Source of the DNA: Escherichia virus TH47
Sequence record: MT446416.1
Direction: 5' to 3' (one strand)
Length of the DNA: 64,000 bases
In this document: piece by piece, positions 23,365 to 42,925 of the stretch
How the letters are laid out: each line of letters begins with the position of its first letter
Numbering within the stretch: the first letter of the stretch is position 1
Position numbers and translations under genes: made by a program
The notes under the pieces: generated by a model
Told to the model about the DNA's origin: nothing
Databases searched by the model: none
What the model saw: the letters and a program-made list of their open reading frames with translations, nothing else

Positions 23365-23613
23365 AGGGACTCCATTAAAAATAATATCAATCCTATAATA
23401 TACGATTCGTATAAAAAGTCAATAACATTTTATTAGTAATACCCCTTTATCGAAGTCGCTAAGGTTACCCGCAGTTTAGCCCCCTACGCATTTTGCCATA
23501 GTCCAATCCCTTTTTATTCATAAAAGTCAAGGGATTACCTATGCATTTTTTTAACGCTGAAGTTTAAAAATGCCTTGACTTTTTTATGATTCAGTACTAA
23601 ATCCTTTTACGCA

Positions 23614-23823
23614 TTAATCCTTCGTTACGCTTACGATTATCTGTGTATCCCCATAGTCCTGCCATACTTCCACGCCAGCCGCCGACCTGGTTAGTCGTGC
23701 TGTCATCTGCTTAATGGTCTTAGGCTTTAGTGGAACCTGTTGCAGTACTGTACGCATGGCACTATCGACGTTATCATGTACGCCTGCAATAGTACCTAGA
23801 ACGCTGTATACTGTATAGATCAT
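23614..23823 (-). CDS. hypothetical protein
   Basis: 69 aa; AGGAG 9 nt upstream of ATG. Confidence 0.5.
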   Translation of the reverse strand: MIYTVYSVLGTIAGVHDNVDSAMRTVLQQVPLKPKTIKQMTARLTRSAAGVEVWQDYGDTQIIVSVTKD

Positions 23824-23891
23824 GTGTATGTACTCCTGATATAGTTAAGGCCGCTACAAGGCGGCCTATGATGTTTGATGATGTGTAACGC

Positions 23892-24293
23892 TTACAACCC
23901 TAAGATAGTACGTGCTTCGTTACGTTCCTTAGTTTGCTGCATGATGTAAGCTAACTGGTCCTTGCTAATGTATCCCTTGTCCATAGCTTCACGGATAGAT
24001 ACATCATAAGCACCGAACCCCGTGCGAACGATACGCACATCATTCAGGTTAGTGTTATATATACCGCCGAGATCAACGGATTCGAATACTGCATCAACTG
24101 TATATTCGTTGTTACCGTCATTGAAGTTTTCAATCTCAATATTACGGGACACGGCCCAACGTTTACAGCTACCGATAATGCGGCAATATTCCGGTTGCAT
24201 ATGACCATTACTTACAGCGTGCTCAAGGCCAGCTTTACCAAAAGTCCGGGCCAGTACTAAAACGTCAGCGTAAGAAGTGATAGTGAAAGTCAT
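23892..24293 (-). CDS. hypothetical protein
   Basis: start MTFTITSYADV at 24291-24293 after AGGAG; track N-extension MYNVLHREG is translation of the promoter/stem-loop cassette. Confidence 0.55.
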   Translation of the reverse strand: MTFTITSYADVLVLARTFGKAGLEHAVSNGHMQPEYCRIIGSCKRWAVSRNIEIENFNDGNNEYTVDAVFESVDLGGIYNTNLNDVRIVRTGFGAYDVSIREAMDKGYISKDQLAYIMQQTKERNEARTILGL

Positions 24294-24382
24294 GATGATA
24301 CTCCTTAAGTTAGGAGGGAGAACCATTTCCCCCTCTCTATGTAAAACATTATACATGAATCTAAGTACTATGCAAGTACTTT

Positions 24383-24715
24383 TTACATTTTAATACCTGG
24401 ATTCAGGTAGCGGTGAGATCCATACTCTGGGTAGGTTTCAGTCCAGTACTGTAAATCTATAGTACCTTTAGCGTTAATCTTGTCTACCAGCTTATTCATC
24501 TTAGCGTATACTACATTAGCATCGATGCGTTTAAAGCCAGTGGCTTTAGTGAAGTAGTAGTGATTTGCTTCACTATCATTAAGGATATACCGAGCACCGT
24601 TTGCCGTTTGTGCAATAATGATTGAGTATTCTACTTCCCGATCCAGTCCGTCAATGAATACAGATGAAACATTAGTACGGATGAAAGCGTTTACGATAGC
24701 GATTGAAGTACTCAT
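24383..24715 (-). CDS. hypothetical protein
   Basis: 110 aa; AGGAG RBS. Confidence 0.55.
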   Translation of the reverse strand: MSTSIAIVNAFIRTNVSSVFIDGLDREVEYSIIIAQTANGARYILNDSEANHYYFTKATGFKRIDANVVYAKMNKLVDKINAKGTIDLQYWTETYPEYGSHRYLNPGIKM

Positions 24716-24860
24716 TTTGAATCTCCTAACTTTGTGGGCCGTCGCACCATTGCCGCCCTACGAGATACATTATTGCAGTACTGCTATACTTTGTCAATAG
24801 TTTTTTATTAATAGTTTTAGTACTGGCAGTACATCCACCAGCAGATAGTTACTCACCGTT

Positions 24861-24965
24861 ATTAACTATATATTTTAGATACACCTATGCACCCGGTGGG
24901 CTAGTTTTTGTCTATGCGTATATAATAGCAAAGGGACTTACCGGAGTCAATCCCTTTTTTATTCT
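24861..24965. repeat. ~100-nt conserved intergenic element, copy 1 (TATAAT...ATGCACCCGGTGGGCTAG...hairpin+T-run)
   Basis: near-identical copies at 25966-26066, 28698-28800, 32948-33055. Confidence 0.55.
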
Positions 24966-24967
24966 TT

Positions 24968-25225
24968 TTATGAAATATCTTCGATGTAGTCGGCCCATTT
25001 CATTTTTTCAGTACTGTCAATGGCTACCGGATTATTTGGATCAAACCATTCACCATTACCGCAATACATACCCACGGCTACGGTTTTATAGCCATCCTGT
25101 GCCGTATTCCATGACATTGCACGATAGATATGGCCTTTAATTGGTGTTAGTACTGGTAACGTTTTATGGTCTTCTACGTAGGCCATAGCTTGAGGATTTA
25201 CCCGATATTGTGTGAACTGTTCCAT
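24968..25225 (-). CDS. hypothetical protein
   Basis: 85 aa. Confidence 0.5.
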   Translation of the reverse strand: MEQFTQYRVNPQAMAYVEDHKTLPVLTPIKGHIYRAMSWNTAQDGYKTVAVGMYCGNGEWFDPNNPVAIDSTEKMKWADYIEDIS

Positions 25226-25301
25226 TATGTTTCCCCTTGTAGTTAGTAAAGTTATTACATCAGTACTATCAAGCTATGTCAATAGTACTGAAATAAAACT
25301 T

Positions 25302-25526
25302 TTAGATTAGATTATTGATACCTTCGATGGTAGACTCGCTTTCTTCTTTCTCCCATTGTCGGTAGTACTTCCATGTTTCATGATATGTGGCGATTAGTTC
25401 ATCTTTTTGATCCTGGTTACATGCCAGTACTGAATCACGGTGAGCGGTGTTATAGATAGAATCGAATGATTTCTTCTCTTCTGCCAGGTTAGCTACTTCC
25501 CGCATCAGTTCATCAAAGTTAGCCAT
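25302..25526 (-). CDS. hypothetical protein
   Basis: 74 aa; AAGGAG RBS. Confidence 0.5.
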   Translation of the reverse strand: MANFDELMREVANLAEEKKSFDSIYNTAHRDSVLACNQDQKDELIATYHETWKYYRQWEKEESESTIEGINNLI

Positions 25527-25593
25527 TTTAATACTCCTTTTAGTGGGGGAGGATATCTCCCCCTATGCAAAACATTATACGCTTTATTCAGTA

Positions 25594-25857
25594 CTATGCA
25601 AGTACTTTTTTCATATAAACATTAAATTCTACACCGCCGTAACCTTCCACGATGATATGTTTTGCGTTATCACGCTTGCACATAGTGAAACCGTTGTTGA
25701 TATGTTCTGCATTTTCCAGGGCTACATCACCGATAGCGGCACATACAGCACTAATAACAGTATTCCGCAAAGTACTGGTATCATTAGCGGTCATAGTAGT
25801 TTGCAGTACTACGTTGTCATATACGTGTGCATTGATAGTGATTTCAATAGCGTTCAT
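25594..25857 (-). CDS. hypothetical protein
   Basis: start MNAIEITINAH at 25855-25857 after CCAGGAGA; track extension is cassette read-through. Confidence 0.5.
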   Translation of the reverse strand: MNAIEITINAHVYDNVVLQTTMTANDTSTLRNTVISAVCAAIGDVALENAEHINNGFTMCKRDNAKHIIVEGYGGVEFNVYMKKVLA

Positions 25858-25865
25858 GGTGTATC

Positions 25866-25928
25866 TCCTGGACTTGAGGGGAAACCATTTCCCCCTCTCG
25901 ATGTAAAACATTATACGCGAATTGCGAT
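25866..25928 (-). promoter_or_regulatory. sigma70-like promoter (TTGCAT-16-TATAAT) followed by palindromic stem-loop GGGGAAAnnnTTTCCCC and RBS
   Basis: -35 at 25922-25927, -10 at 25900-25905, stem-loop ~25868-25885 (minus-strand sense). Confidence 0.55.
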
Positions 25929-26073
25929 AGTATGCAAGTACTTTTTTAAAATAGTTTTCAGTACTGAATACTTATATAATAGATACATTTATGCACCCGG
26001 TGGGTTAGATTGTTTTCATGCATATATAATAGCAAAGGGACTGACCTGAGTCAATCCATTTTTTTAATCTTTT

Positions 26074-26658
26074 TTATCGTGTTATAGTTACGGCTTTTAC
26101 ATCACGCTTTTTATAGTACTGATTCCAGATATTGCGGGTTAAACCGTAATCAAGTACTTTAATCAAGCCGTTACGATCCTGGCCGATATTCTGTTTTCTG
26201 ATATCTCTTATAGTTAGTGTTGATAAGGTATCATCAACGTGTTGTAGTGCATCAGCAAAGCGGTGCTGGCGTTCAATGGTATTACGTTTAATATTGCACT
26301 TTAATTCGTTGCACGCGTTAACGTGCTTTACGCTGCCTTTGCTTGCAGTACTCAAACGATCCATAACAATAAACATATTATCAGGATCGCTTAAATGCAT
26401 ATGCACCTTAGCAAAGTACTGTTTCATTTGAGGGCGGTCATAATCTAAAAAATTCCATACCTTACATTCAGTTTCATTTTGTTCTACACCCGCATCACAA
26501 TTCGCGACCTTGATCACTAACCGATCATTTAAAGCGAATACTATACGGGAAGAACCCGCACCGATGATCTCAAGACCAGCTAACCGACAAGCTGAAAGGA
26601 TCTCTTTGTTGGTTTCCATTTCTGACAGTGTACGGATAAATTTAGTATAATTACGCAT
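26074..26658 (-). CDS. protein-kinase-like protein (Ser/Thr kinase fold)
   Basis: Gly-rich loop IIGAGSSRIV, VIKV lysine, catalytic-loop-like IRDIRKQN, DFG-like LDYG; start MRNYTKF at 26656-26658 after AAGGAG. Confidence 0.5.
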   Translation of the reverse strand: MRNYTKFIRTLSEMETNKEILSACRLAGLEIIGAGSSRIVFALNDRLVIKVANCDAGVEQNETECKVWNFLDYDRPQMKQYFAKVHMHLSDPDNMFIVMDRLSTASKGSVKHVNACNELKCNIKRNTIERQHRFADALQHVDDTLSTLTIRDIRKQNIGQDRNGLIKVLDYGLTRNIWNQYYKKRDVKAVTITR

Positions 26659-26705
26659 TGCATTTACTCCTTGAATTGATGAAACTATATTACAGTACTT
26701 TACTA

Positions 26706-26933
26706 TCAATGGCAACTACTTTTTTTAACATTAACGGCGTGGATCACTTCCTTAGTGTTTTTAGTACTGAATACTTTTGCCGCTCCTTGTTCGACCGTGA
26801 TGCGATAGCGACCATTAACATCAACCATATTAATAAAGTCCGGCGTGCTGAATGGTGTTGTTTTACATTTCAGTACGGTTAACAGTTCCACCAGCGATGT
26901 AGTTTATTTGATACGTTTTTCTAAAGTAATCAT
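26706..26933 (-). pseudogene. small ORF with in-frame TAA at codon 10
   Basis: ATG 26931-26933 with RBS-like context; TAA at 26904-26906 in frame; downstream frame continues ...TTSLVELLTVLKCKTTPF (track ORF 26706-26891). Confidence 0.3.
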
Positions 26934-26987
26934 TTTGTTTTCCCCCGTGTTGGTATATATACATAGTACTAAAACATTTGAGTACTG

Positions 26988-27242
26988 TCAACGTGAAATT
27001 CTTTTAATAGCAGTATTATACTGCTGGTGCTCATACAAACTAATTTTACCAGTACTCTCGATAACGATTCTATTGTTAGTGTCTACATCGATAACACGCA
27101 GTTTACCGTTGCTTAACTTCCTAGGTAATATGTTACCATTAATAAACTCATTAGCAAGCTGTACGGCCTTTGTGATGATTCTCTGAGGGGCTTTATAGTG
27201 TACCCGCAAGATATTATCTTTAGATAGTTGTACCTTAATCAT
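26988..27242 (-). CDS. hypothetical protein
   Basis: 84 aa; AGGAT RBS. Confidence 0.5.
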   Translation of the reverse strand: MIKVQLSKDNILRVHYKAPQRIITKAVQLANEFINGNILPRKLSNGKLRVIDVDTNNRIVIESTGKISLYEHQQYNTAIKRISR

Positions 27243-27304
27243 TTTAGTTTATCCTATAAAAAAAGCGGGAACTGATCCCGCCGTGTTGTTAGTACTGCTA
27301 GGTA

Positions 27305-27700
27305 TTAGATAACCTGTCGGCGTTTACTGAATACAGTAACACTGTTTCCCTTGCGGTCGTGGCGGATCTCTCGTTGGTTGCGAATCAGTACACTTGGACG
27401 CTTCAAGTTAGCCAGATGATCCGCGTGAGTCCATGCATTCGAATTTACGGAAACTTTAATATCAGAACCCGCGACGAATTCATCTTGAGCGTTAAGAATT
27501 GCCGCCAGTTCTTCAGCTTGTTTTTGTTCTGCTGCTGTCAGTACTGGCTCAGGTGAATTCACAATATCAGAGATTTCTTTGAACTGTACGGCCCAGCGTT
27601 GGCCTTTCGGTGCATCTTTGCCCATGTCTTTAAATAGCTCACCTTCCTCGCGTGCAACAATACGGGCAGCTTCACGGGTAGCGTAGAATTTAGTAATCAT
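27305..27700 (-). CDS. hypothetical protein (paralog of 39218-39481)
   Basis: shared segments ATREAARIVA...FKDMG...RWAV...HDRKGN-VTV. Confidence 0.5.
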   Translation of the reverse strand: MITKFYATREAARIVAREEGELFKDMGKDAPKGQRWAVQFKEISDIVNSPEPVLTAAEQKQAEELAAILNAQDEFVAGSDIKVSVNSNAWTHADHLANLKRPSVLIRNQREIRHDRKGNSVTVFSKRRQVI

Positions 27701-27795
27701 GGTATACATCCTATTAGTTAAGTTAGTACTACAAGCGAGAGTCTATTATAAAGTACTATCTGTGTAATGTCAAATAGTACTTTAAATGGATTCTA

Positions 27796-28119
27796 TTACA
27801 TGTCTTTCTTACGTTTTACATCGTAGTAGCGAACTGTTATTTCTTTGTTAATCTCTTTTTCGATGCGGTGAATAACTTTTTCTTTCGGGTTGAAACCTAT
27901 AACGGTTTCTTTAATGATCTCCAAACCAGTGTATTCGCCTTGCGTACCGTAACCGTATGTAAAGGTTTCGTGTCCCAGGTCTTCCCAGCGGTCGCCAATT
28001 AACGCAGACACGTAGCAAGAGTGGTAAGTATTGCCGTTCCGATCAGTCCAGCGATTAACTTTAATGTCAAAGGAGGTTACAATTTTCAGTTCTACTTTCT
28101 GGGTAAGGATCATAGCCAT
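27796..28119 (-). CDS. hypothetical protein (paralog of 34364-34708)
   Basis: shared YGYG motif and C-terminal DVKRKKD[ML]. Confidence 0.5.
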   Translation of the reverse strand: MAMILTQKVELKIVTSFDIKVNRWTDRNGNTYHSCYVSALIGDRWEDLGHETFTYGYGTQGEYTGLEIIKETVIGFNPKEKVIHRIEKEINKEITVRYYDVKRKKDM

Positions 28120-28206
28120 TTTTATTTCTCTCTTTTAGTTAGGAGGGGAACCATTCCCCTCACTTGATGTAATCTATTATACAGTACTAAGATACTTTGT
28201 CAATAC

Positions 28207-28482
28207 TTAAGTATTGTAAATGTCGTGAATAGTGATAAAGTTTTTACGACCGTAAACCTGTAAATCGGTATCAATGTAGTGTTTATCTAGTACATCCTCG
28301 ACGCTTAACGCGGTGTCGTGGATATCTTCGTAGAATTGAGGATCTACAATCTTGCTTAAGTCATCCGGTGTTAACTTATCGTTAAGCCATTGCACCGCCT
28401 GGATATCTGCTTCACGTTTCCAGTCTTGCAGGTTAGTAGTCAGTACTTGCTCGATTTCGTTAGCTGTCAGTAGAATCCGCAT
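28207..28482 (-). CDS. hypothetical protein
   Basis: 91 aa; preceded by TTGACA-16-TATAAT. Confidence 0.5.
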   Translation of the reverse strand: MRILLTANEIEQVLTTNLQDWKREADIQAVQWLNDKLTPDDLSKIVDPQFYEDIHDTALSVEDVLDKHYIDTDLQVYGRKNFITIHDIYNT

Positions 28483-28536
28483 TTTAATGTTTCCTTATCA
28501 GTGGTTGATGTAAGTATTATACTCGTTTACTTTCTA

Positions 28537-28620
28537 TTGTCAATCTTTTTATCAGGGGAGTTTTTCGTATGTCTTACTCCTGGACTACTTAACGGGGTTA
28601 CTTGTTTCGTTCCCCCGTCC
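28537..28620. repeat. ~80-nt conserved element (ATCAGGGGAGTTTTTCGTATG...CCCCGTCCTGATG), copy 1 of 2
   Basis: second copy at 38537-38622; internal inverted repeats. Confidence 0.5.
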
Positions 28621-28942
28621 TGATGTAAAACATTATACTTGATTTTAAGTACAATGCAAGTACTTTTTAAAAATAGTTTTCAGTACTAGCCACCAGCAAA
28701 TAATAGATACATTTATGCACCCTGTGGGCTGATTTGTTTCTATGCGTATATAATAGCAAAGGGACTTACCGGAGTCAATCCCTTTTTTAATTATTTTTAA
28801 ACTTGTTTTGGGTTGCGATATGTGATAGCGTTCGGGTACATTTGTTTAATGTTATTCCATGCCTGGTTAACATTATAACCACTTGAGCGAATCAGTTGGT
28901 TACTACCGACACCTTGAAACACTACTTCGAATAAGAATTCTT

Positions 28943-29116
28943 TCATGCTTTCACCTCGCGATCTGCTTTACCTTTACGCCACGCTGTTGCTAATTGTTCG
29001 CGTTGCCATAAGTCGAGTGATACGTAAAGTTTTGCATTATCACCCTTCGGATATTCGCCAGTAGTACCAATCCGATAAAACAGATCTTTCAGTACTGTCA
29101 ATTCTACCTGGATCAT
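28943..29116 (-). CDS. hypothetical small protein
   Basis: start MIQVELTVLK at 29114-29116; track N-extension is cassette. Confidence 0.45.
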   Translation of the reverse strand: MIQVELTVLKDLFYRIGTTGEYPKGDNAKLYVSLDLWQREQLATAWRKGKADREVKA

Positions 29117-29134
29117 TATACTTTCCTCTTTGTT

Positions 29135-29195
29135 AGGAGGGGAACTATTCCCCTCTCGATATAAAACATTATACACTTTATTCAGTACTGTGCAA
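29135..29195 (-). promoter_or_regulatory. sigma70-like promoter (TTGCAC-16-TATAAT) plus stem-loop AGGGGAAnnnTTCCCCT
   Basis: -35 29190-29195, -10 29168-29173, stem-loop 29135-29156. Confidence 0.55.
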
Positions 29196-29202
29196 GTACT
29201 TT

Positions 29203-29415
29203 TTAATCTTTCAGCCAATGATCCTGAATGAATTTTTCACCAAATCCCTGTTTCATGGATTCTAACAGGCGTTCACGGTGAGCGTTGGCGAATTGCTCCG
29301 TACTATGCGTTACACCTGGTTGATATCTGGATTCACCATTGGGGGCGATGTATTGCACATCCCACGGTTTAGCGTTAGTATCAGACCATTTACGAACGAT
29401 TAGTTGACCTTGCAT
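29203..29415 (-). CDS. hypothetical protein
   Basis: 70 aa; GAGGAAAG RBS. Confidence 0.5.
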   Translation of the reverse strand: MQGQLIVRKWSDTNAKPWDVQYIAPNGESRYQPGVTHSTEQFANAHRERLLESMKQGFGEKFIQDHWLKD

Positions 29416-29501
29416 TTTTCTTTCCTCTTAGTGGGGAGAATCATTTCTCCCCTTCATGTAAACTATTATACAGTACTATAATCTATTGTCCAGTACTTTT
29501 T

Positions 29502-29690
29502 TTACAGTTTATGAATCAATTCTTTATCTAAGCGATAGCGTACATTATTAATAGTAACGGCATTGTTTTTAATGCTACGCTGTACTGGTCCACCAGCAAT
29601 AACAAACGTTGCCTTATTACCCCGAACAATGATAGCACTTCCTGGATTGCTGTATTCATCTTGTACTAAAATACTTGATAAGTTTTCCAT
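29502..29690 (-). CDS. hypothetical small protein
   Basis: 62 aa. Confidence 0.45.
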   Translation of the reverse strand: MENLSSILVQDEYSNPGSAIIVRGNKATFVIAGGPVQRSIKNNAVTINNVRYRLDKELIHKL

Positions 29691-29777
29691 TTTTATTTCC
29701 TCTTAGTAGGGGAAGATGTTTCCCCTTGATGTAATACAGTATACACTATCTTTCAGTACTGTCAATACTTTTTAGTA

Positions 29778-33709: not shown

Positions 33710-33710
33710 A

Positions 33711-34013: not shown

Positions 34014-34283
34014 TTAATAGGTGTATGGTTGACGCTCAAACAATGATTGCACGTTGTACGCCCCGCTAATGGGCTTCGCTGGTATGTCGATCTTATATTT
34101 CTCACGCTTAAAGATAATAAAACGGCAATTGTTCTTAACATCAAAATTGATTGAACGTTCCAGGAGTTTTCCATCGTGCACAAATACAAGATAACCGCTC
34201 GCTACTTGTTTTGTAGTACTGGTTGCAACCATTGACCGCCTAACATGCGTACCTGCATCGATTAAAGTACTGATATTTTTCAT
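34014..34283 (-). CDS. hypothetical protein
   Basis: 89 aa; GAGGATAG RBS. Confidence 0.5.
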   Translation of the reverse strand: MKNISTLIDAGTHVRRSMVATSTTKQVASGYLVFVHDGKLLERSINFDVKNNCRFIIFKREKYKIDIPAKPISGAYNVQSLFERQPYTY

Positions 34284-34363
34284 TTTACTATCCTCTTAAT
34301 TTGATTTAATTTCTTTCCCCTATGCAGACACTATATCAAAGTATCTGCATAAAGTAAAGCTAA

Positions 34364-34708
34364 TTAAAGATCTTTTTTGCGTTTAACATCAGTTACCGAA
34401 CTGTAAACAGTGATATTATTGTCACGGCAAAAACGGGAAAGATAAGAACCGCGTAAAAACTCTTTACCTTCCATATTAATAACCTTGCTAAATTCTTCCA
34501 TTGCTACAGTGTCAAAGTGATCCCCATAGCCATATTGGAACGGCACGTTTACTACTTCAATAAATTCGCCATTGATTTCAACATCTACCGTTAAAGAGAA
34601 ATAAGTATTACCATAAGACGCCTGGAACCAACGCCGGGCTGCAATATGTACAACTTCAACAGAAGACAGGTTGATGTTTTGTGCTGTGATAGTGTTGATG
34701 ATAGCCAT
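34364..34708 (-). CDS. hypothetical protein (paralog of 27796-28119)
   Basis: 114 aa; YGYG motif, C-term DVKRKKDL. Confidence 0.5.
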   Translation of the reverse strand: MAIINTITAQNINLSSVEVVHIAARRWFQASYGNTYFSLTVDVEINGEFIEVVNVPFQYGYGDHFDTVAMEEFSKVINMEGKEFLRGSYLSRFCRDNNITVYSSVTDVKRKKDL

Positions 34709-34790
34709 TTTTTGTTTCCTCTTAGTGGGGGAACCATTCCCCTTGATGTAATGTATTATACTTTATCTGATTTACTTTGCAAGTACTTTT

Positions 34791-35018
34791 TTAATTTAAT
34801 TCATCCAGGCAAAGGATACGTTCTACACCTAAATCAGTTAAACTAATAGACGGCACTTGATAGGTTTCAATGTATGCTACACTTGCCCACTGACCGAACT
34901 CATTAACGGCCCAGGTATCCATTGCAAAATGCAATTCCGCACCTGCCTTGTTGGTAATGACTGCAACTACTTGTTCGTTGCCAGTAGTACCAGATACGCG
35001 AGTAATGATAATAGCCAT
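34791..35018 (-). CDS. hypothetical small protein
   Basis: start MAIIITRVSG at 35016-35018; track extension is cassette. Confidence 0.45.
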   Translation of the reverse strand: MAIIITRVSGTTGNEQVVAVITNKAGAELHFAMDTWAVNEFGQWASVAYIETYQVPSISLTDLGVERILCLDELN

Positions 35019-35305
35019 TGTTTTGATTCCTTTTATTTGGAGGGGAAACTGTTTCCCCCCCTCTCGATGTAAAACATTATACGCTAATCTCTTTATAGTG
35101 CAAGTACTTTTTATTACTTTTTGCAAAATACTTTAAACGCTCTCAATCGCTCTATAACAACATTAACGCCACCAGCTAGGGAAATGCATCAGATATTCAG
35201 TTTAATGCGTTAGAATCGTTTCTAGGCGGTGCTGGTGGCCTGGTAAACGGTAAACACAAAAAATCCCACTGTTTAAGGTGGGCTAGTGATTCAGTACTTT
35301 AATTG

Positions 35306-35788
35306 TTATGCTTCAACTTTGCGATGAGCTTCGATCCATTCCTCGCGAGTCAATCCGCTTTCTTTGATAGCATCCAGTACTACCGAAATGCAGTTACCAC
35401 GCACCGGAATCAGATATTCTTCCCCGTTATCAAGTACTACCGCTACACGTTCTTGAATCCATTTTTTAGGCTTAGACTCCGGCTTATCTTCCCCATACTT
35501 AACCGCCAGGGCTTTTTGTGCCATCTCGGTAACTACTTCCATATCCAGCCCATCTACTACCGCCTGGATACTTTCAATTGTTGCTTGTAGTTCTGCTTCA
35601 CGGGCCGCCTTCGCTGCTTCAATCTCTGCCGCTTTATTTGCTTGTAGTTCTTTCGCAGTACTGTAAGCGATGTTAAAATTATTGCGAACCGCTTTCATGG
35701 TATCGTTATCCAGTTCAGCCAGGATCTCTGCCGCTACGTTAGTTTCATTTGCTACCAGTGCTTTGATGAATGATTTGATGTTAGCCAT
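35306..35788 (-). CDS. hypothetical protein, Ala/Glu-rich (coiled-coil-like)
   Basis: start MANIKSFIKAL after GAGGAT; followed by hairpin terminator CCCAC-N-GTGGG + T-run (~35245-35280). Confidence 0.5.
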   Translation of the reverse strand: MANIKSFIKALVANETNVAAEILAELDNDTMKAVRNNFNIAYSTAKELQANKAAEIEAAKAAREAELQATIESIQAVVDGLDMEVVTEMAQKALAVKYGEDKPESKPKKWIQERVAVVLDNGEEYLIPVRGNCISVVLDAIKESGLTREEWIEAHRKVEA

Positions 35789-35939
35789 TAGATAAATCCT
35801 CAATTAAAGTTTAGTTTACGTTCATTAGTGTATCAAAGTTTAATCGACGTGTCCAGTTTTTCGTTCGACTTACTGGCGGTCTACTTAGTGTTCCCCGTCT
35901 TGATGTAATACATTCTACGCCTTTTTGCGGTAATGTCAA

Positions 35940-36500
35940 CTATCTTTTTGAATATTTTTTAATGTATCTCATAATCGCTGGCGGTGTAGTATTATACCTT
36001 TCAGCTAGTATAATTGAGTTAGCATCATGTGAATATGGTTTATACAGTTGTATAACTTCGTTAATCTCTTTTTCAGTTAGTTTTGTCCTAACATGCCTTA
36101 TACCTTCACTCTCATACTTCACTATTTTTTTAATAGGCGTTGCGTCGTCATGTATTCCGGTATCGTGTGCGTGTATTATGTTTTCCTTTCCGGTTGACCA
36201 TTCCAAATTACTGTAATGATTATTACTTTTATTTCTATCCTTATGATTAACCTGGACTTTCTTTCTTTTTGTTTTTTGTGCCCATTCTATTTGTGCAGGT
36301 GTCGGAGGGGGTAGATAGTTGGATGCAACCAATCTTTGAACATACTCAAAATGTTTTGATTTGTCTTCTCTTACAAGCGTTAATCTATGATACCCATCAG
36401 GGCGAATTGTTGGAGAAAGAATATTACTACCATAACGCCTAACATCCCCATACTCACTAATTTCATAAAGGGGATTCTCTTTTAATTGTTTCCATTCCAT
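35940..36500 (-). CDS. HNH-family homing endonuclease
   Basis: N-terminal YEISEYGDVRR...GYHRLTL and LEW-like pattern typical of phage HNH homing endonucleases. Confidence 0.65.
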   Translation of the reverse strand: MEWKQLKENPLYEISEYGDVRRYGSNILSPTIRPDGYHRLTLVREDKSKHFEYVQRLVASNYLPPPTPAQIEWAQKTKRKKVQVNHKDRNKSNNHYSNLEWSTGKENIIHAHDTGIHDDATPIKKIVKYESEGIRHVRTKLTEKEINEVIQLYKPYSHDANSIILAERYNTTPPAIMRYIKKYSKR

Positions 36501-36581
36501 TGATTTGATCCTTTTAGTTTCTCCTTTGTATTATATCACACAAAAACAAAAAAAGCCCACTGTTTAAGGTGGGCTAGTGAT

Positions 36582-36881
36582 TTATAAACAGTTAATTACT
36601 CCTGTGTGCGTTACTTTCTCAGTATCCATTACAGTGACCGAACCGCGTTTAGTACTGGCATCATAATAAATTGTTGTGCTACCTTTCGCATCTTCTTCAT
36701 GGAACGGGCCGTTTTTAAATGCTTCTGGCTGGATCTCTAGATCCTTTAAAACAATATCGCCAGTTCTTTCTTCGGTCATTGCAACAGTGCACTGAATGAA
36801 TTTTTCACTACTTACATCTAACGACGCATTAACAGCGAAAGAGGAAACAGATAAAGCCAGGGAGATGATTGCTACTTTCAT
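36582..36881 (-). CDS. small secreted/periplasmic protein (signal peptide)
   Basis: start MKVAIISLALSVSSFAVNA; hydrophobic core + AxA-like site. Confidence 0.5.
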   Translation of the reverse strand: MKVAIISLALSVSSFAVNASLDVSSEKFIQCTVAMTEERTGDIVLKDLEIQPEAFKNGPFHEEDAKGSTTIYYDASTKRGSVTVMDTEKVTHTGVINCL

Positions 36882-37122
36882 TTGATTATCCTTAGTTACC
36901 AGGGGAACCGTTCCCCCTATGTAAAACATTATACGCGTTTAAAAACTATTATCAAGTACTTTAATATAAAAGTATTTGAAAAATAATTGTTGACAACTGC
37001 ATCCAGTACTGGCATAATACCTACATAAAGACAAAACAGTCTCCAACCCACCGGGTGCATAGATCCGTCTATTAAATGATTCAGTACTGCAAAATAAAGG
37101 GGATCAATTGATCCCCTCTGTA

Positions 37123-37344
37123 TTACTTAGTAAGGTATAAACAGAAGTCACCTTTATTTGCTACGCCGCCAGTGTAACGCGATGAATAGTTAGAAATATC
37201 TTGTACTTCTGCTATTACCAGTGTATCATCATTCATTTCGTCGCAGAAGCAAACGGCTGGATCTTTTACGCCGATATTGTCGGCATGTTCCCGCATAGAT
37301 TTAACCAGTGCTTCCAGTTGAGAAAGAGTAGTGATATTAGCCAT
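37123..37344 (-). CDS. hypothetical small protein
   Basis: start MANITTLSQLEAL at 37342-37344. Confidence 0.45.
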   Translation of the reverse strand: MANITTLSQLEALVKSMREHADNIGVKDPAVCFCDEMNDDTLVIAEVQDISNYSSRYTGGVANKGDFCLYLTK

Positions 37345-37534
37345 TGTATTTTCCTCATTACCAGGGAGAACCATTTCTCCCCTCTATGTAAACTATTATA
37401 CAGTACTGGAAACTAATTGCAAGTACTTAATGGTAAGATCCGCAACGGTTGCAGTAGTTTTATTTGTTCGATCATGATGCTTACTCCTGGTTAAAGGCGG
37501 GAACCATTCCCCGCCATTGTCACAGTACTGAATA

Positions 37535-37774
37535 TTACATTCCAACCATTGCAGCACGGATCGCAGTAGTGCTATACTTGAATCCGTCCGGCGTTGTAGT
37601 AGTACCGTTGGCTTTTAATCTGCGGTACATACATTCCGCTGCAATATCTTTCGTTTTACTTTGAGCGATGCAATTTTGAGCAATCCGGTACAATGATTCA
37701 TCGTTATTGATCCAAAGGCTTACATTCCAATGAGTTTTGTTTTTGTGTCCGTTGTAAGTTTTAGTACTAGCCAT
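37535..37774 (-). CDS. hypothetical protein (paralog of 39563-39790)
   Basis: shared NGHKN-HWNVSLWINNDESLY...AAMVGM. Confidence 0.5.
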   Translation of the reverse strand: MASTKTYNGHKNKTHWNVSLWINNDESLYRIAQNCIAQSKTKDIAAECMYRRLKANGTTTTPDGFKYSTTAIRAAMVGM

Positions 37775-37863
37775 TTTTTAATCCTCTTATATAGTGGGGA
37801 ACTATTCCCCACCTGATGTAAAGTATTATACGCTTTTAAACTTAGTTTGCAAGTACTTTTTAA

Positions 37864-38475
37864 TTAATATGCGATTGATTCTACTACGCCATCAATAACA
37901 TTGAATTGATATTCGTTACCCTCAATCAGTGCCGTAATGTTTTCAGTAGTGAATTGATCCTTATATGCATTCTCTAAATCACGGTAAAACTTGCGTGACA
38001 ATTCACGAATAGTATCAGTTAGTAGTTTCTCAAGCTCATTAACTAACGTTTCTTGTTTTGAGGTTAAATCAGTGTAAGCCGATTCAATGTACCCGCTTAC
38101 AGTGTTCTCATGCGAGTAATGGGAGTGAGATCGCTTTACACTCATCGCCAAATCATCTTCATTCAGCAGGTGACGGATTGAGCGATACTTAGTTAATGCT
38201 CTTACCTTGCGTAAAAACTTCACTGCGTCAACGTGGTCAGTACTGATTGATGCACCGTCACCCTGGGACCAAAAACCACTGAATTGTATTTCAGCGTCAT
38301 TAATGCCATATTCTGGTAGTACTGTTTCTTTATAGTATTCAATTTCACTTTCAGAAAAATAATCGTCGTTTGTGTTTTTTTCACGTTCCCGAACCAGTTC
38401 GATAGCTGACGTTTTTTGTTCTGCGTTCAATTCAGAAAAATCCATAACATAAGTAGTAGTAGTGATAGTTTTCAT
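37864..38475 (-). CDS. hypothetical protein
   Basis: 203 aa; GAGGG RBS. Confidence 0.55.
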   Translation of the reverse strand: MKTITTTTYVMDFSELNAEQKTSAIELVREREKNTNDDYFSESEIEYYKETVLPEYGINDAEIQFSGFWSQGDGASISTDHVDAVKFLRKVRALTKYRSIRHLLNEDDLAMSVKRSHSHYSHENTVSGYIESAYTDLTSKQETLVNELEKLLTDTIRELSRKFYRDLENAYKDQFTTENITALIEGNEYQFNVIDGVVESIAY

Positions 38476-38899
38476 TTTGTAACCCTCATTCAGTAGTTGA
38501 TGTAAGTATTATACGCTTTTAAAAACAATTGTCAAACTATTTTATCAGGGGAGTTTTTCGTATGCCTTACTCCTGGGCTACTCAACGGGGAGTTACTTAT
38601 TTCGTTCCCCGTCCTGATGTAATACATTATACGCCGTTAAACATAGTATGCAAGTACTTTTTAAAATAGTTTTCAGTACTGAATAGTAAAAAGGTATTGA
38701 CAGCACTATCCAGTACTGGCATAATATACCCCATGACAACAGCTAACCCACCGGGTGCACAATTGTAACTGTACTAAACTACTTTTTCTATAGATACACT
38801 CCCGCACCCCGTGGGCCAAATTGTTCGTTTCAATAGATACATTATGCCAGTACTGACAAAATAAGTCAATACTGGCAATTGTAAAGATTTGTAAACTAC

Positions 38900-39130
38900 T
38901 TATACTGCAATCGCGTCCAGGCTATAATAATAATAAGTGCCGTATTGGTGTACTTTATTACCTTTTATTTCAGTACTGAATGAATCCGAACGATTAGCAT
39001 ATGATGTTAATTTAAAGTACTTTGCTTTACTAATACGTTGCCATACACCGCAGATCCGCTGTAAGTAAGTAGTTTTATTAGTGGTAGTATCTTTTACGGT
39101 TTTAACTTCGGTCATATACATATTAGCCAT
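38900..39130 (-). CDS. hypothetical protein
   Basis: start MANMYMTEV at 39128-39130. Confidence 0.45.
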   Translation of the reverse strand: MANMYMTEVKTVKDTTTNKTTYLQRICGVWQRISKAKYFKLTSYANRSDSFSTEIKGNKVHQYGTYYYYSLDAIAV

Positions 39131-39217
39131 TTTTTTAATCCTCTTATGTAGTGGGGAAGTATTCCCCATCTGATATAAAGTATTATACGCTTTTAAACTT
39201 AGTATGCAAGTACTTTT

Positions 39218-39481
39218 TTATAGTACTGCAATCTTTTTAGTACGGTACACGGTAACGCGATTGCCCTTGCGGTCGTGCTTTATTTCTACTACTCGCCGCG
39301 ATACACTATCAGGACTTTTTAACGCCGCCAACCAGTACTGTAAAGATCTGGCTTTACTTTGCTTTACTACCGCCCAACGTTTACCACGTTCCGATTGTCC
39401 GCCCATATCTTTAAACGTCGCCCCGTCCAGACGTGCGGCGATCCGTGCTTGTTCACGCGTCACAAAGTACATAATATTCAT
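39218..39481 (-). CDS. hypothetical protein (paralog of 27305-27700)
   Basis: 87 aa. Confidence 0.5.
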   Translation of the reverse strand: MNIMYFVTREQARIAARLDGATFKDMGGQSERGKRWAVVKQSKARSLQYWLAALKSPDSVSRRVVEIKHDRKGNRVTVYRTKKIAVL

Positions 39482-39562
39482 GCTGTTACCCCATCGTTGA
39501 CGTATAAAAGAAATCTATTATAAAGTACTATCACCGTGCAATAGTACTTTAAATATATTCTA

Positions 39563-39790
39563 TTACATTCCAACCATCGCCGCACGCACGCTTGATTTGC
39601 TATAACGTGCCCCATCAGGCGTGTGAGTACCTAAAAGGCGTAACATCCGCTCAACCGCTTTATCTCGCGTGTTGGTGCTTTTAATACTTTCCAGGGCCAA
39701 TTGGTACAGTGATTCATCGTTATTGATCCAAAGGCTTACATTCCAATGGTTGTAGTTTTTATGGCCGTTGAAAGTTTTAGTAGTAGTCAT
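39563..39790 (-). CDS. hypothetical protein (paralog of 37535-37774)
   Basis: 75 aa. Confidence 0.5.
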   Translation of the reverse strand: MTTTKTFNGHKNYNHWNVSLWINNDESLYQLALESIKSTNTRDKAVERMLRLLGTHTPDGARYSKSSVRAAMVGM

Positions 39791-39883
39791 TTTTAATTCC
39801 TCTTAAGTGCAGCGGGAACCATTCCCGCTCTCGATGTAATACATTATACGCTATTTGATAGTACTGTCAAACTAATTTTTAAC

Positions 39884-40246
39884 TTATTCGTAAATTTTGC
39901 CACTGTCAGCCCATACCAGGAAACGAGGCATATTATCCCATGCATCTTGTTTTAAATTTAAACCGTGTAATACTTCTGTACTTTCCATTCCTGGTACTGG
40001 TTTACTATACACCGCGAACATTTCACCCATATACTGATAAGCCATCGTTAAATCACTGGCGATCATCTTATGGATCATCGCATCAAGCATCACGGTAGCG
40101 GCGTATTGTTCACGCTTAAGCGGCAACATTGCAATAAGTCCACGATAAGCTGAAATGTGAATTTTTACCGTTTCTGCCGGAAGATCTTTCATCTCGTCGC
40201 GGAAGTTAACCAGGTTAGCAATAATTTTATTGATTTGTGTCGCCAT
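39884..40246 (-). CDS. hypothetical protein (first gene downstream of the 2-kb control region)
   Basis: 120 aa; preceded by TTGCAT-N16-TATAAT and stem-loop. Confidence 0.55.
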   Translation of the reverse strand: MATQINKIIANLVNFRDEMKDLPAETVKIHISAYRGLIAMLPLKREQYAATVMLDAMIHKMIASDLTMAYQYMGEMFAVYSKPVPGMESTEVLHGLNLKQDAWDNMPRFLVWADSGKIYE

Positions 40247-40380
40247 CGTTTTTAATCTCTCTTAAAGTGCAGCGGGAACCATTCCCGCTCTCGATGTAAT
40301 ACATTATACGCCGTTAAACATAGTATGCAAGTACTTTCTACAAATACTTTTAAAATAGTTTTCTTTCTATATAGGGGAAC

Positions 40381-42920: not shown

Positions 42921-42925
42921 ATTAG

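Follow-up and report, generated by a model that had tools for sequence, protein, structure and literature searches.

The window, that is, the whole 64,000-nt stretch of Escherichia virus TH47 DNA analysed here (MT446416.1), carries a family of promoter repeats that is confined to a single block, coincides with homology breakpoints between related phages and accompanies cargo genes shared in scrambled order with another phage. The best overall reading, which is considered probable, is that this block (23.46-41.97 kb) is an early, host-takeover-type region in which a self-contained expression module is repeated about 25 times, forming a terminal-repeat array of PeSL-like promoter-hairpin modules in which the hairpin acts as RNA. 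The hairpin is under selection at the RNA level, while every function proposed for the array is putative.

The early-gene block and its promoter cassettes

The host phage of the window is an Asteriusvirus-type jumbo coliphage of the 121Q/PBECO4 group. About 41 small genes occupy the block; all are encoded on the minus strand, and their transcription leads away from the terminus-equivalent end at ~41,970.

23463..41970, minus strand: early-gene block, counterpart of the relatives' long direct terminal repeat (DTR)

The vB_Ec-M-J record annotates a DTR of 21.5 kb at 1-21,525; its position 1 aligns with window position 41,970, the inner end of this DTR maps to ~23,463, and the junction between unique sequence and the right DTR maps to ~41,970-42,040. 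In addition, a DTR of ~21 kb has been experimentally confirmed in fEgEco12 (PMC13070987), homologous cassettes lie within the annotated DTR of fENko-Kae01, and the related phage CBB has RpoD-like promoters with UP elements clustered in its early region and terminal repeat (PMC5259590). Homology to these relatives suggests that a physical DTR is likely present in the window's own genome as well. The cargo of the block includes a GNAT acetyltransferase, a DksA-like zinc finger, a weak kinase-like match and tandem paralogous genes, and otherwise consists mostly of proteins of unknown function, a set that, judged from sequence, appears typical of early accessory genes.

With up to three mismatches, TATAATGTTTTACATC matched 25 times in the window versus 3.5 expected, and 23 of these 25 matches were on the minus strand (24,338-41,583). 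A position matrix of 63 columns, covering -45 to +18 around the -10 box, retrieved 25 sites (24 in the first scan plus 31,280), each on the minus strand, with -10 boxes from 24,353 to 41,583. No matrix site was found outside the array on either strand of the 64 kb, and 20 shuffles scanned with the matrix gave none, confirming the original prediction that the promoter pattern recurs more than 20 times. The repeat of promoter plus hairpin is real but had been overstated; the hairpin is present in 18 of the 25 cassettes. A promoter of its own for nearly every small gene was too much to claim: a sigma70-type promoter lies no more than 170 nt upstream of 27 of the 41 block genes, and 24 of these promoters belong to the cassette family. 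The array spans 24.29-41.62 kb; the extent first proposed was 23,400-40,300, and the cassettes at 40,308 and 41,583 fall at or past its upper limit.

The modules share one order, namely an upstream stop in an A-rich tract, the promoter, a poly-G/poly-C stem-loop, a Shine-Dalgarno site and the ATG, within intergenic regions of 82-95 bp. The TAA stop of the upstream gene falls inside an A-tract resembling an UP element. Two promoter sub-types occur, both near-consensus sigma70, either AAAGTACTTGCA-N16-TATAAT or TTGACA-N16 with AGTACTGTATAAT as an extended -10, and the start-site region contains a conserved TTACAT(C/A). These features suggest that the cassettes are active promoters, with the start site predicted from spacing alone. 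The cassettes, together with one isolated family hairpin, are as follows.

41530..41623, minus strand: cassette 1; -35 TTGACA 41,605-41,600; -10 TATAAT 41,583-41,578, extended TG; leader with a different long stem-loop; no ORF for the next ~1.2 kb
40244..40348, minus strand: cassette; -10 40,308-40,303; hairpin 40,289-40,271 (GCGGGAAUGGUUCCCGC); ATG 40,246
39788..39888, minus strand: cassette; -10 39,848; hairpin 39,829-39,811; ATG 39,790
39128..39227, minus strand: cassette; -10 39,187; hairpin 39,171-39,150; ATG 39,130
38473..38671, minus strand: tandem-promoter cassette; P1 -10 38,631, then a structured ~83-nt leader; P2 TTGACA-16-TATAAT, -10 38,513-38,508; no family hairpin; ATG 38,475
37772..37870, minus strand: cassette; -10 37,830; hairpin 37,813-37,793; ATG 37,774
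37492..37519, minus strand: family hairpin (GGCGGGGAAUGGUUCCCGCC), then AGGAG and ATG, without a matrix-scoring promoter upstream
37342..37440, minus strand: cassette; -10 37,400; hairpin 37,386-37,359, with an ATG in its loop that gives a spurious earlier start; true ATG 37,344
36879..36973, minus strand: cassette; -10 36,933; hairpin 36,919-36,900, from predicted +2; ATG 36,881
35786..35957, minus strand: cassette; -10 TAGAAT 35,917; 129-nt leader without family hairpin; ATG 35,788
35016..35121, minus strand: cassette; -10 35,081; hairpin 35,061-35,039; ATG 35,018
34706..34800, minus strand: cassette; -10 34,760; hairpin 34,742-34,728; ATG 34,708
33426..33527, minus strand: cassette; -10 33,487, extended TG; hairpin 33,473-33,443; ATG 33,428
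32831..32931, minus strand: cassette; -10 32,891; hairpin 32,871-32,855; ATG 32,833
31866..31966, minus strand: cassette; -10 31,926; hairpin 31,908-31,889; ATG 31,868
31570..31654, minus strand: hairpin-less cassette; -10 31,614; ATG 31,572
31228..31320, minus strand: hairpin-less cassette; -10 31,280; ATG 31,230
30132..30209, minus strand: hairpin-less cassette, GNAT acetyltransferase gene downstream; -10 30,169; ATG 30,134
29688..29783, minus strand: cassette; -10 TATACT 29,743; hairpin 29,726-29,708; ATG 29,690
29413..29510, minus strand: cassette; -10 29,470; hairpin 29,452-29,433; ATG 29,415
29114..29213, minus strand: cassette; -10 29,173; hairpin 29,155-29,137; ATG 29,116
28480..28677, minus strand: tandem-promoter cassette, paralogue of 38473..38671; P1 -10 28,637, then a structured leader; P2 -10 28,521-28,516; ATG 28,482
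28117..28221, minus strand: cassette; -10 28,181; hairpin 28,164-28,141; ATG 28,119
25855..25955, minus strand: cassette; -10 25,915; hairpin 25,897-25,876; ATG 25,857
25524..25619, minus strand: cassette; -10 25,579; hairpin 25,563-25,545; ATG 25,526
24291..24393, minus strand: cassette, source of the spurious MYNVLHREG extension; -10 24,353; hairpin 24,339-24,311; ATG 24,293

Several mechanically called ORFs start within a cassette, and the minus strand from 24,356 to 24,290 translates to MYNVLHREGEMVLPPNLRSIIM, in agreement with the spurious N-termini noticed at the outset.

The hairpin as a probable RNA element

The GC hairpin lies between the -10 box and the ribosome site, with a GC-rich stem of 6-10 bp, a loop of 3-5 nt and a dG of -8 to -17 kcal/mol, and is followed by a leader of ~20 nt that is A-rich and unstructured and carries a strong Shine-Dalgarno site ahead of the ATG. 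The stem-loop of the original prediction was thus recovered but its fixed palindrome was not: the literal GGGGAANNNTTCCCC occurs only 6 times (8 with one mismatch, versus 0.06 expected), and the hairpin is therefore a structural family rather than a single palindrome. Three cassettes (30,169, 31,280 and 31,614) have no hairpin at all, and four (28,637, 35,917, 38,631 and 41,583) have long, dissimilar leaders. Across five sequence sets from three lineages (the window, EC22.5-2, 536P1, and loci L019 and L007), the mean distance is 9-12 nt from the -10 box to the stem start and 19.5-20.6 nt from the stem end to the ATG.

A structural alignment of 44 distinct sequences, the fitting of which to the model biases it towards pairing, had 98.6% of cells paired and compensatory changes (both sides changed) at 6 of 8 pairs; these values were reached by 0 of 500 shuffles, and slid controls were 56-74% paired. 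Moreover, the stems contained 25 G·U plus U·G versus 2 A·C. Other lineages have different stems and loops in an identical position relative to promoter and gene, and minimum-energy folding leaves both the Shine-Dalgarno site and the AUG unpaired. Single-sequence fold z-scores were modest (+0.5 to -3.6). Furthermore, the 5' arm is purine-rich in every case, and conservation is therefore partly of sequence or by descent, not of structure alone.

An effect of the stem-loop on mRNA stability or translation is the favoured reading. Most likely, the putative role of the hairpin is to protect and stabilise the 5' end of the mRNA, or to insulate it, rather than to end transcription. Once the block DNA enters the cell, host RNA polymerase would fire from every module, producing numerous short early transcripts that overlap one another and are delimited by a few true terminators, with each module driving one or two tiny genes. 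The transcribed hairpin would end where the ribosome footprint begins and serve as a 5' structural cap that, with a bound ribosome, would leave little naked leader for RppH/RNase E 5'-end-dependent decay. It may also keep the ribosome site unpaired irrespective of the upstream sequence, and in read-through transcripts it could be a 3' barrier for the upstream cistron. The hairpin starts 1-7 nt after the predicted 5' end; if the 8th nt past the -10 box is taken as +1, 4-7 unpaired 5' nt precede most Asteriusvirus hairpins. In the ompA and RppH literature, 4-7 unpaired nucleotides reach or exceed the number still compatible with good 5'-end protection. In addition, the hairpin is missing from 7 of the 25 cassettes and from most Eneladusvirus, GAP32 and CBB-type promoters, and is therefore dispensable for expression.

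Comparison with PeSLs and alternative roles

As in PeSLs, a near-consensus sigma70 promoter is joined to a poly-G/poly-C stem-loop, and the modules occupy a hyper-variable region with tiny orphan genes, where they lie at the boundaries of indels and replacements that distinguish close relatives. The PeSL analogy first proposed thus fits the architecture, but the stem-loop position and the type of host phage differ, and the terminator role is not supported. Published PeSLs come from T4-type phages, whereas the window derives from an Asteriusvirus-type jumbo phage; a cassette used as BLAST query matched no T4-type record. The PeSL stem-loop lies mostly between or over the promoter boxes; here it has a fixed place downstream of the -10 box and predicted start, and is therefore part of the transcript.

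A true PeSL function, with the stem-loop as an attenuator or terminator limiting read-through and each gene expressed mainly from its own promoter, is possible but unlikely. PeSL stem-loops cut lacZ expression as strongly as rrnB T1, and one published class has its stem-loop downstream of the -10 box (PMC2839356). The present cassettes are as dense as PeSLs, and without attenuation read-through would accumulate. However, no U tail was found (of the 8 nt that follow the stem, 0-3 are T, usually 1), leaving the terminator role demonstrated for PeSLs unsupported here, and a stem-loop placed beyond the predicted start of its own module would dampen that module's transcript as well. Moreover, the block contains separate T-run terminators (further such sites at 36,554-36,575, 35,265-35,282 and 40,698-40,717) and composite hairpin/promoter elements at 24.9, 26.0, 28.8 and 33.0 kb, whose layout is nearer to that of the original PeSLs.

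27264..27282, minus strand: site resembling an intrinsic terminator, with a true T run, at the boundary of a transcription unit within the block
24922..24960, minus strand: composite element, a terminator-like hairpin (GGGATTGACTCCGGTAAGTCCC, then CTTTGCTATTAT) that overlaps a promoter-like site, TTGACT-17-TATTAT; paralogues at 26,026-26,060, 28,750-28,785 and 33,007-33,045

A similarly small chance is given to a regulatory site, at which a phage-encoded factor would bind the hairpin RNA, or a DNA palindrome centred at ~+15, and switch off the early class or mark it for cleavage at the early-to-middle transition, like an operator just past the start site or T4 RegA/RegB on early mRNAs. The hairpin is exclusive to the cassette promoter class and its position suits a roadblock operator; sequence conservation also exceeds what structure alone needs, with a 5' arm that is always GGGG(A)GAA-like and an apical AAUGGUU/AAUAGUU common in Asteriusvirus and Phapecoctavirus. 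Against such a site, stems range from 6 to 10 bp and show compensatory substitutions (GGGG to GCGG or CGGG; an extra GA:UC step), loops differ by lineage (UGG or UAG versus ACAUC or ACAAC), the excess of G·U over A·C counts against a double-stranded DNA site, and no candidate binding protein was identified. That the hairpin is a functionless passenger of a spreading promoter repeat, or only a DNA-level recombination hotspot acting via a cruciform, is very improbable: intragenomic copying is clear (cassette identities and tandem paralogous genes), hairpin-less cassettes exist and PeSL mini-circle crossovers map in or near the loop (PMC2839356), but compensatory changes preserve pairing, the G·U tolerance is strand-specific, Eneladusvirus and Phapecoctavirus have unrelated stem sequences at the equivalent position, and spacing to the -10 box and AUG is tight in all five sets.

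Cassettes and gene exchange between phages

The original prediction held that absence of the elements outside the window would speak against them. In the whole 351,992-bp EC22.5-2 genome, all 32 cassettes lie at 30,141-50,137 on one strand, and hairpin-model matches are limited to this one block, which is homologous to that of the window; yet cassettes reappear in every relative and also in a second lineage of phages. The comparison of cassettes with synteny breakpoints bore out the proposed coincidence, as 67% of 112 homology-block ends from four relatives fell in promoter cassettes versus 21% expected by length (77% versus 47% for intergenic ends only). Of the junctions listed in the comparisons with these relatives, ~19 have an insert flanked by a cassette-sized overlap of 54-97 bp, and many of them fall repeatedly at identical positions in the window. 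The breakpoint statistic indicates association only, not mechanism: their mutual similarity will by itself tend to draw homology-block ends into cassettes, and breaks within genes are eliminated by selection.

Identity within cassette pairs reaches 92%, whereas their flanks average 26%. Since the modules are mutually 60-90% identical while the genes between them are unrelated, module similarity could provide the homology for gain, loss, duplication and exchange of single genes. The cassettes thus appear associated with places of gene swapping between phages, presumably through recombination, and exchange may reach an unrelated coliphage lineage. Phapecoctavirus 536P1 and the Phapecoctavirus-like Shigella phage SF1-1 have the same cassette layout as the window, and SF1-1 shares six cargo genes with it at 70-96% identity, which are adjacent in SF1-1 and dispersed and reordered in the window.

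The cassette repeat and its promoter

The early-gene block of TH47 (window 23,463-41,970, minus strand) carries a recurrent unit, here called a cassette, composed of a sigma70-type promoter, a GC-rich hairpin, a Shine-Dalgarno site, and an ATG. A search of the window for TATAATGTTTTACATC with up to three mismatches returned 25 matches against 3.5 expected, 23 of which were on the minus strand at 24,338-41,583. A matrix of 63 columns (-45 to +18 around the -10 box), trained on the TATAATGTTTTACATC sites, identified a family of 25 minus-strand cassettes whose -10 boxes lie at 24,353-41,583 (24 in the first pass, and that at 31,280 later), whereas it found no site on either strand in the remaining 46 kb of the window and none in 20 shuffles. 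The cassette repeat is a genuine, highly non-random feature. The palindrome GGGGAANNNTTCCCC, the literal GGGGAA-N3-TTCCCC stem-loop that the original prediction had taken as the general element, was detected in six exact and two one-mismatch copies in the window (0.06 expected); it is much rarer than the promoter and does not hold in that role.

The cassette promoter has a -35 box of TTGCA(T/A) or TTGACA, a spacer of 16 nt, and the -10 box TATAAT in 23 of the 25 copies. Two promoter sub-types were recognized in the minus-strand intergenic regions, namely AAAAAGTACTTGCAn-N16-TATAAT, and GTATTGACA-N16 followed by the extended -10 TAGTACTGTATAAT. In compact cassette intergenic regions, the upstream gene ends with its TAA within an A-tract (AAAAAG), and downstream of the -10 box the sequence G/A-T-T-T-T-A-C-A-T-C/A leads into the hairpin, a spacer of ACTAA type, a Shine-Dalgarno site (AAGAGGA or AAGGAG type), and the ATG, the complete intergenic spacer measuring 82-95 bp. 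The hairpin was present in 18 of the 25 cassettes (dG -8 to -17 kcal/mol) and absent from those with the -10 box at 30,169, 31,280, and 31,614. Cassettes of special layout, likewise named by their -10 box, are as follows:

28,637 and 38,631, minus strand: first promoters (P1) of two tandem-promoter units, with a structured leader of ~80 nt from P1 to the second promoter (P2)
35,917, minus strand: long-leader cassette, leader of 129 nt
41,583, minus strand: cassette followed by ~1.2 kb without any ORF

By a simple gene call, the block encodes 41 genes, exclusively on the minus strand, and 27 of them had a sigma70-type promoter within 170 nt upstream, which belonged to the cassette family in 24 cases. 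The statement that nearly every small gene has its own promoter is therefore right for 27 of the 41 genes and too strong as worded. The spurious N-terminal extensions suspected from the ORF track are real, as exemplified by window 24,356-24,290 (minus strand), which reads MYNVLHREGEMVLPPNLRSIIM, and the cassette map shows annotators the true start codons.

Structure, position and possible role of the hairpin

When 95 unique leaders, drawn from the window and from four relatives, were aligned outward from the loop, the 5' arm proved rich in purines, GGGG(A)GAA, and the 3' arm rich in pyrimidines, with stems mostly of 7-9 bp, loops mostly of 3-5 nt, and 61 distinct hairpin sequences. A covariance model built from 23 gapless seeds aligned 62 matches (44 distinct), in which standard pairs made up 98.6% of the cells of the distinct sequences and both-side changes occurred in six of the eight pairs (e.g., GC to AU, and GC to CG), in an alignment that is fitted to the model and consists of related sequences. 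The observed pairing values were reached by none of 500 column shuffles, and pairing fell to 56-74% when partner columns were slid. Wobble pairs comprised 25 G·U or U·G against two A·C, and this strand-biased excess fits RNA pairing on the transcribed strand rather than a duplex-DNA site or a cruciform. A DNA operator read on both strands was disfavoured by the same asymmetry.

RNAalifold returned no structure from a plain MAFFT alignment of 91 leaders owing to stems of unequal length lying out of register, so that the loop-anchored count and the covariance model were used instead; the single-sequence fold z-scores were modest, constituting weak evidence, and were not used as support. Searches against Rfam gave nothing in the whole window at gathering thresholds and one chance-level match in the block in E-value mode, and ARAGORN detected no tRNA or tmRNA.

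The position of the hairpin was compared in five sets from three lineages, comprising the window, EC22.5-2, Phapecoctavirus 536P1, and the metagenomic contigs L019 and L007, the former related to Salmonella phage Munch and Klebsiella phage fENko-Kae01. The geometry is tight: apart from one scan outlier, 6-14 nt separate the -10 box from the stem (mean 9-12 nt), indicating that the hairpin lies downstream of the predicted start site, and the distance from stem end to ATG averages 19.5-20.6 nt; in the predicted folds, the Shine-Dalgarno site and the AUG are unpaired. Taking the A at the eighth nucleotide after the -10 box as the start, the predicted 5' overhang in the window is 1-7 nt, and in the Munch-like contigs and Phapecoctavirus, where the stem follows the -10 box at a distance of 8-10 nt (at most 14 nt), the predicted overhang is shorter at ~0-6 nt.

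The near-exact fit of the hairpin between the predicted 5' end and the ribosome footprint is consistent with a leader designed for protection. Host sigma70 polymerase would fire each module, and the hairpin would act as RNA, filling the leader from the predicted 5' end to the 20 nt before the AUG that the ribosome covers, such that hairpin and ribosome together would leave no naked leader for 5'-end-dependent decay, while the hairpin would also keep the ribosome site open regardless of the upstream sequence. Such protection is well established in the case of the 5' hairpin of ompA and the gene 10 leader of T7, and the cassettes resemble both in having a stable hairpin a few nucleotides from the (predicted) 5' end, followed by an efficient ribosome-binding site, but differ in that the hairpin is repeated ~18 times per genome within a mobile module. 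An overhang of 2-4 nt is considered protective for 5'-terminal hairpins, which the predicted 1-7 nt often exceeds, and the 4-7 nt predicted for many of the Asteriusvirus copies are the main weakness of the proposed leader protection. We infer all cassette functions discussed here from sequence, and the picture as a whole, in which a terminal-repeat early or host-takeover array consists of modules fired by host sigma70 with a transcribed hairpin acting on RNA, is regarded as reasonably probable. The ~25 compact natural variants of a strong promoter, 5' hairpin, and ribosome site could be used for tests of the influence of 5' structure on mRNA lifetime during infection.

Termination was considered as another role. 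Promoter-early stem-loops (PeSLs) of T4-type phages mostly lie between or over the -35 and -10 boxes and terminate transcription (PMC2839356, PMC4122927), and an attenuator of this type would give the TH47 hairpin a comparable function; it is nevertheless improbable, given that the U tail is missing and the hairpin sits downstream of the module's own start site. The 8 nt after the stem contain 0-3 T, usually one, in the 18 hairpins, none of which is among the minus-strand terminator-like sites listed for the window, and separate terminators with true T runs exist in the block. Identity as an intrinsic (Rho-independent) terminator was rejected on this tail composition (0-3 T of 8). A hairpin serving as the binding site of a factor that controls the early class is also rather doubtful, with the covarying stems and the loops that differ among lineages both weighing against it. 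That the hairpin is a functionless passenger or purely a DNA-level recombination hotspot is very improbable in view of the stem covariation, the G·U bias, and the position-specific convergence.

Terminal-repeat equivalence, gene shuffling and distribution

Megablast placed the window among the Asteriusvirus jumbo coliphages (e.g., 121Q, PBECO4, slurp01, G17, and UE-S1), with a highly mosaic block, of which the best record covers 83% at ~91% identity in 19 pieces. In vB_Ec-M-J, the direct terminal repeat is annotated at 1-21,525, and its 31 cassettes all lie at 398-20,634. Position 1 of this genome aligns with window 41,970, the inner end of the repeat with window ~23,463, and the junction between the unique region and the right-hand repeat with window ~41,970-42,040. 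A scan of the whole EC22.5-2 genome (351,992 bp) identified 32 cassettes, all at 30,141-50,137 on one strand, and matches of the hairpin covariance model were confined to this stretch, bar a few weak palindromes. Taken together, the vB_Ec-M-J mapping and the single stretch in EC22.5-2 indicate that the cassette array coincides with the terminal-repeat equivalent. The array is predicted to be transcribed inward from the terminus-equivalent end, and we infer from these alignments that the physical ends of the TH47 genome would be at the block. In a study of fEgEco12, PhageTerm and restriction digests confirmed that terminal repeats of ~21 kb occur in the genus, with promoters unmentioned (PMC13070987).

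Recognizable products of the block are limited to an HNH endonuclease and the following:

26,074-26,658, minus strand: weak protein-kinase-like match, scoring below the Pfam cut-off
29,778-30,134, minus strand: GNAT acetyltransferase
30,198-30,455, minus strand: DksA-like protein (zinc finger)

The kinase-like, GNAT, and DksA-like cargo are plausible modifiers of host transcription or host proteins. The ~20-kb Asteriusvirus terminal repeat, hitherto a tract of hypothetical proteins only, would read as a dense early module driven by host polymerase, and for phage-therapy candidates of the genus, the block pinpoints the genes that vary most, whose role probably lies in host takeover or anti-defence.

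Comparison of the window with four relatives by megablast yielded 112 internal homology-block ends, of which 49% fell in family cassettes (16% expected by length) and 67% in any promoter cassette (21% expected), whereas 20% fell inside genes against 58% expected; when intergenic ends only were considered, 77% were in cassettes against 47% expected. The proposed correspondence between cassettes and synteny breakpoints is borne out by these figures as an association, which does not imply crossovers inside cassettes and to which the mutual resemblance of the cassettes and selection against breaks within genes both contribute. About 19 of the junctions listed against the four relatives, with many repeats of one window position, have the signature of an insert between two cassette copies: one and the same 54-97 bp of the window aligns to either side of 160-1,276 bp of additional sequence in the relative. 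The cassettes of the window are mutually 58% identical on average (maximum 92%), and the 90 nt upstream average 26%. Some adjacent cargo genes are paralogues.

The strongest single observation on shuffling is provided by six cargo genes that the block has in common with Shigella phage SF1-1 at 70-96% nucleotide identity. In SF1-1, these genes are adjacent within 2.5 kb, whereas in the window they are scrambled into a different order, lying at 31.7, 37.6, 29.9, 39.0, 34.5, and 40.0 kb, each with its own cassette. This arrangement shows that cassette-borne genes have been reassorted one unit at a time, in part by exchange between unrelated lineages, and is direct evidence at the sequence level that individual early genes move together with their cassette from one lineage to another.

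The block also contains an HNH/NUMOD4 homing-endonuclease gene (186 aa, window 35,940-36,500, minus strand), at which a homology gap of 35,971-36,589 corresponds to a replacement or deletion in all four relatives compared. This gene looks like a mobile insertion and could promote local recombination.

Regarding distribution, a strict pattern search of IMG/VR recovered the promoter only in contigs of ~350 kb and one 109-kb fragment. Promoter and hairpin occur together in a 366-kb Munch/fENko-Kae01-like metagenomic contig and in the 360-kb and 109-kb contigs. In Eneladusvirus (Serratia phage BF and Erwinia phage pEa_SNUABM_50), the AAAGTACTTGCA...AGTACTnTATAAT promoters are kept, and hairpins accompany two of ~12 promoters, with unrelated stem sequences at the identical position. 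The few promoter loci of putative GAP32- and CBB-type contigs had the promoter, and no hairpin was seen in them. The hairpin-poor Eneladusvirus and these hairpin-less loci indicate that the hairpin is an optional add-on to an older promoter family.

BLAST of one 89-nt cassette matched only ~350-kb jumbo phages and, unexpectedly, ~145-kb Stephanstirmvirinae-like phages of Justusliebigvirus and Phapecoctavirus, and detected no sequence similarity in T4-type records. Four records of ~146-149 kb matching the coliphage cassette, MG065639, MG065645, and MG065689 (labelled Campylobacter phage) and OP562383 (labelled Acinetobacter phage), are of Stephanstirmvirinae-like size, and their host labels may be wrong. 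In SF1-1, the cassette layout recurs in ~11 of 16 intergenic regions over a 7-kb stretch, in the order TAA, A-tract, TTGACA, 17 nt, -10 box, GTATTACAT, a hairpin of GGGCGGGAAUAGUUCCCGCC type, Shine-Dalgarno site, and ATG. The hairpin model R1, trained on Asteriusvirus stems, barely detects Phapecoctavirus hairpins, and a generic promoter-hairpin-Shine-Dalgarno-ATG scan was therefore applied to the whole 149 kb of 536P1, revealing 12 units clustered at 83.9-91.0 kb and four further scattered minus-strand matches, of which only that at 61.2 kb resembles the family; shuffles gave zero. It is possible, if unlikely, that the cassettes form a mobile early-gene pool across unrelated virulent coliphages (the terminal repeats of Asteriusvirus and the early region of Stephanstirmvirinae-like phages), with the conserved 5' hairpin as a common functional tag read by a host or phage RNA-binding or decay factor, in which case a captured gene could at once be expressed, and subsequently be silenced, as an early gene of any recipient phage.

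Comparison with described systems and additional elements

The closest described system is that of the PeSLs, which have been reported in RB49/phi1, PST/T4, and nt-1/KVP40 (Arbiol et al. 2010, PMC2839356; Comeau et al. 2014, PMC4122927) and whose cassettes recombine to excised mini-circles (PMC2839356, PMC4122927). Both share a stop codon in an AT-rich tract, a sigma70 consensus promoter, a poly-G/poly-C stem-loop with G·U pairs, a Shine-Dalgarno site, and an ATG; both are dense within a hyper-variable region of tiny orphan genes, and both occur at insertion, deletion, and replacement boundaries of close relatives. In contrast to PeSLs, the TH47 hairpin has a fixed position in the transcribed leader and no U tail, a hairpin over the -35 box being found only in four separate composite elements (24.9, 26.0, 28.8, and 33.0 kb); the cassettes occupy one terminal-repeat block rather than the several hyperplastic regions of T4-type phages, and their carriers are Asteriusvirus and its relatives plus Stephanstirmvirinae-like phages, not T4-type phages. 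The likeness to PeSLs drawn in the original prediction thus stands for module order, setting, and indel association, and fails for stem-loop position, terminator features, lineage, and single-block distribution. The idea behind PeSLs, a regulatory cassette that is also a recombination handle, is thereby extended beyond T4-type phages to a jumbo-coliphage terminal repeat and to a second, unrelated coliphage subfamily.

The host-takeover module of SPO1 is described as lying in the terminal redundancy (a 1998 study as cited in PMC6873191; PMC10531801). The block resembles it as the probable counterpart of a long direct terminal repeat with ~24-45 very small genes, mostly of unknown function, that share one orientation and many host-sigma promoters, but differs in host and phage lineage. 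The shut-off or redirection of host functions that marks SPO1-type modules may also apply to the block. The pre-early genes in the terminal repeat of T5 form a further parallel, and we know of no description of a uniform promoter-hairpin-Shine-Dalgarno cassette repeat in SPO1 or T5.

Among Rak2-like phages, the early region and terminal repeat of CBB and GAP32 contain RpoD-like promoters accompanied by UP-like elements (Buttimer et al. 2017, PMC5259590), with 18 such promoters and no hairpin reported in CBB (PMC5259590). These phages belong to the same jumbo-phage super-group and have promoters of the same type, AAAGTACTTGCA...TATAAT is also present in putative GAP32- and CBB-type contigs, and short hypothetical genes and the terminal repeat are likewise where the promoters concentrate, whereas 25-32 cassettes per genome, with the hairpin, were found here. 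No description of the cassettes was found in the literature on the promoters of 121Q, PBECO4, phAPEC6, RaK2, fEgEco12, and rV5.

Several additional elements were observed in and around the block. The window contains 65 copies of the 8-bp palindrome CAGTACTG (0.9 expected), most densely spaced at 23.7-42.1 kb, and the EC22.5-2 genome contains 204, where it is the most over-represented 8-mer at 58 times expectation and AGTACT occurs 919 times against 121 expected. It is found in coding and non-coding DNA, also at the EC22.5-2 loci L020-L027, and within promoters as AAAGTACTTGCA upstream of the -35 box and AGTACTGTATAAT as an extended -10, being kept even in Eneladusvirus. A site for a phage DNA-binding protein is one possibility; a text search of the literature for CAGTACTG returned primers only.

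Just inside the terminus-equivalent end and downstream of the 41,583 promoter, ~1.7 kb (window 40,300-41,970, minus strand) lack a plausible ORF, and the stretch is equally unannotated in 121Q, UE-S1, and vB_Ec-M-J. It contains 12 copies of an iteron-like 8-bp unit, TAGCCGTC, at 41,064-41,162, four 13-bp GATAGTACTGAAW repeats at 40,379-40,433, and many CAGTACTG sites, and may represent an origin, a signal for packaging or for the terminus, or a non-coding RNA.

The two tandem-promoter units (28,516-28,637 and 38,508-38,631, minus strand) are paralogues with a conserved ~80-nt leader after the family promoter P1, and P2 is a perfect TTGACA-16-TATAAT directly before the gene. The leader folds as a closed two-hairpin structure (-22 kcal/mol, z -2.7), has no Rfam match, and could be a small RNA or a regulatory leader.

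Long intergenic regions (24,880-24,960, 25,980-26,060, 28,700-28,785, and 32,960-33,045) contain two additional repeat families, the first of which consists of the hairpin GGATTGACTCNGGTNAGTCC followed by CTTTGCTATTAT. This hairpin overlaps a promoter-like site, TTGACT-17-TATTAT, in an arrangement nearer the classic PeSL layout. The second family is the box AGCCCACCGGGTGCATAAATGTATCTATTATAT, present in both orientations, and related copies of the long-intergenic repeats lie near 37,040, 38,760-38,810, and 40,660-40,890.

Immediately beyond both ends of the block (21,900-23,360 and 42,300-43,500, minus strand), ORFs of 60-72 aa are tightly packed or overlap stop to start; several share the beginning ATGAATAAAGAA, and no ORF there is preceded by a promoter of its own. 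Genes 249-265 of 121Q form a similar run, and this organization is sharply unlike that of the cassette array.
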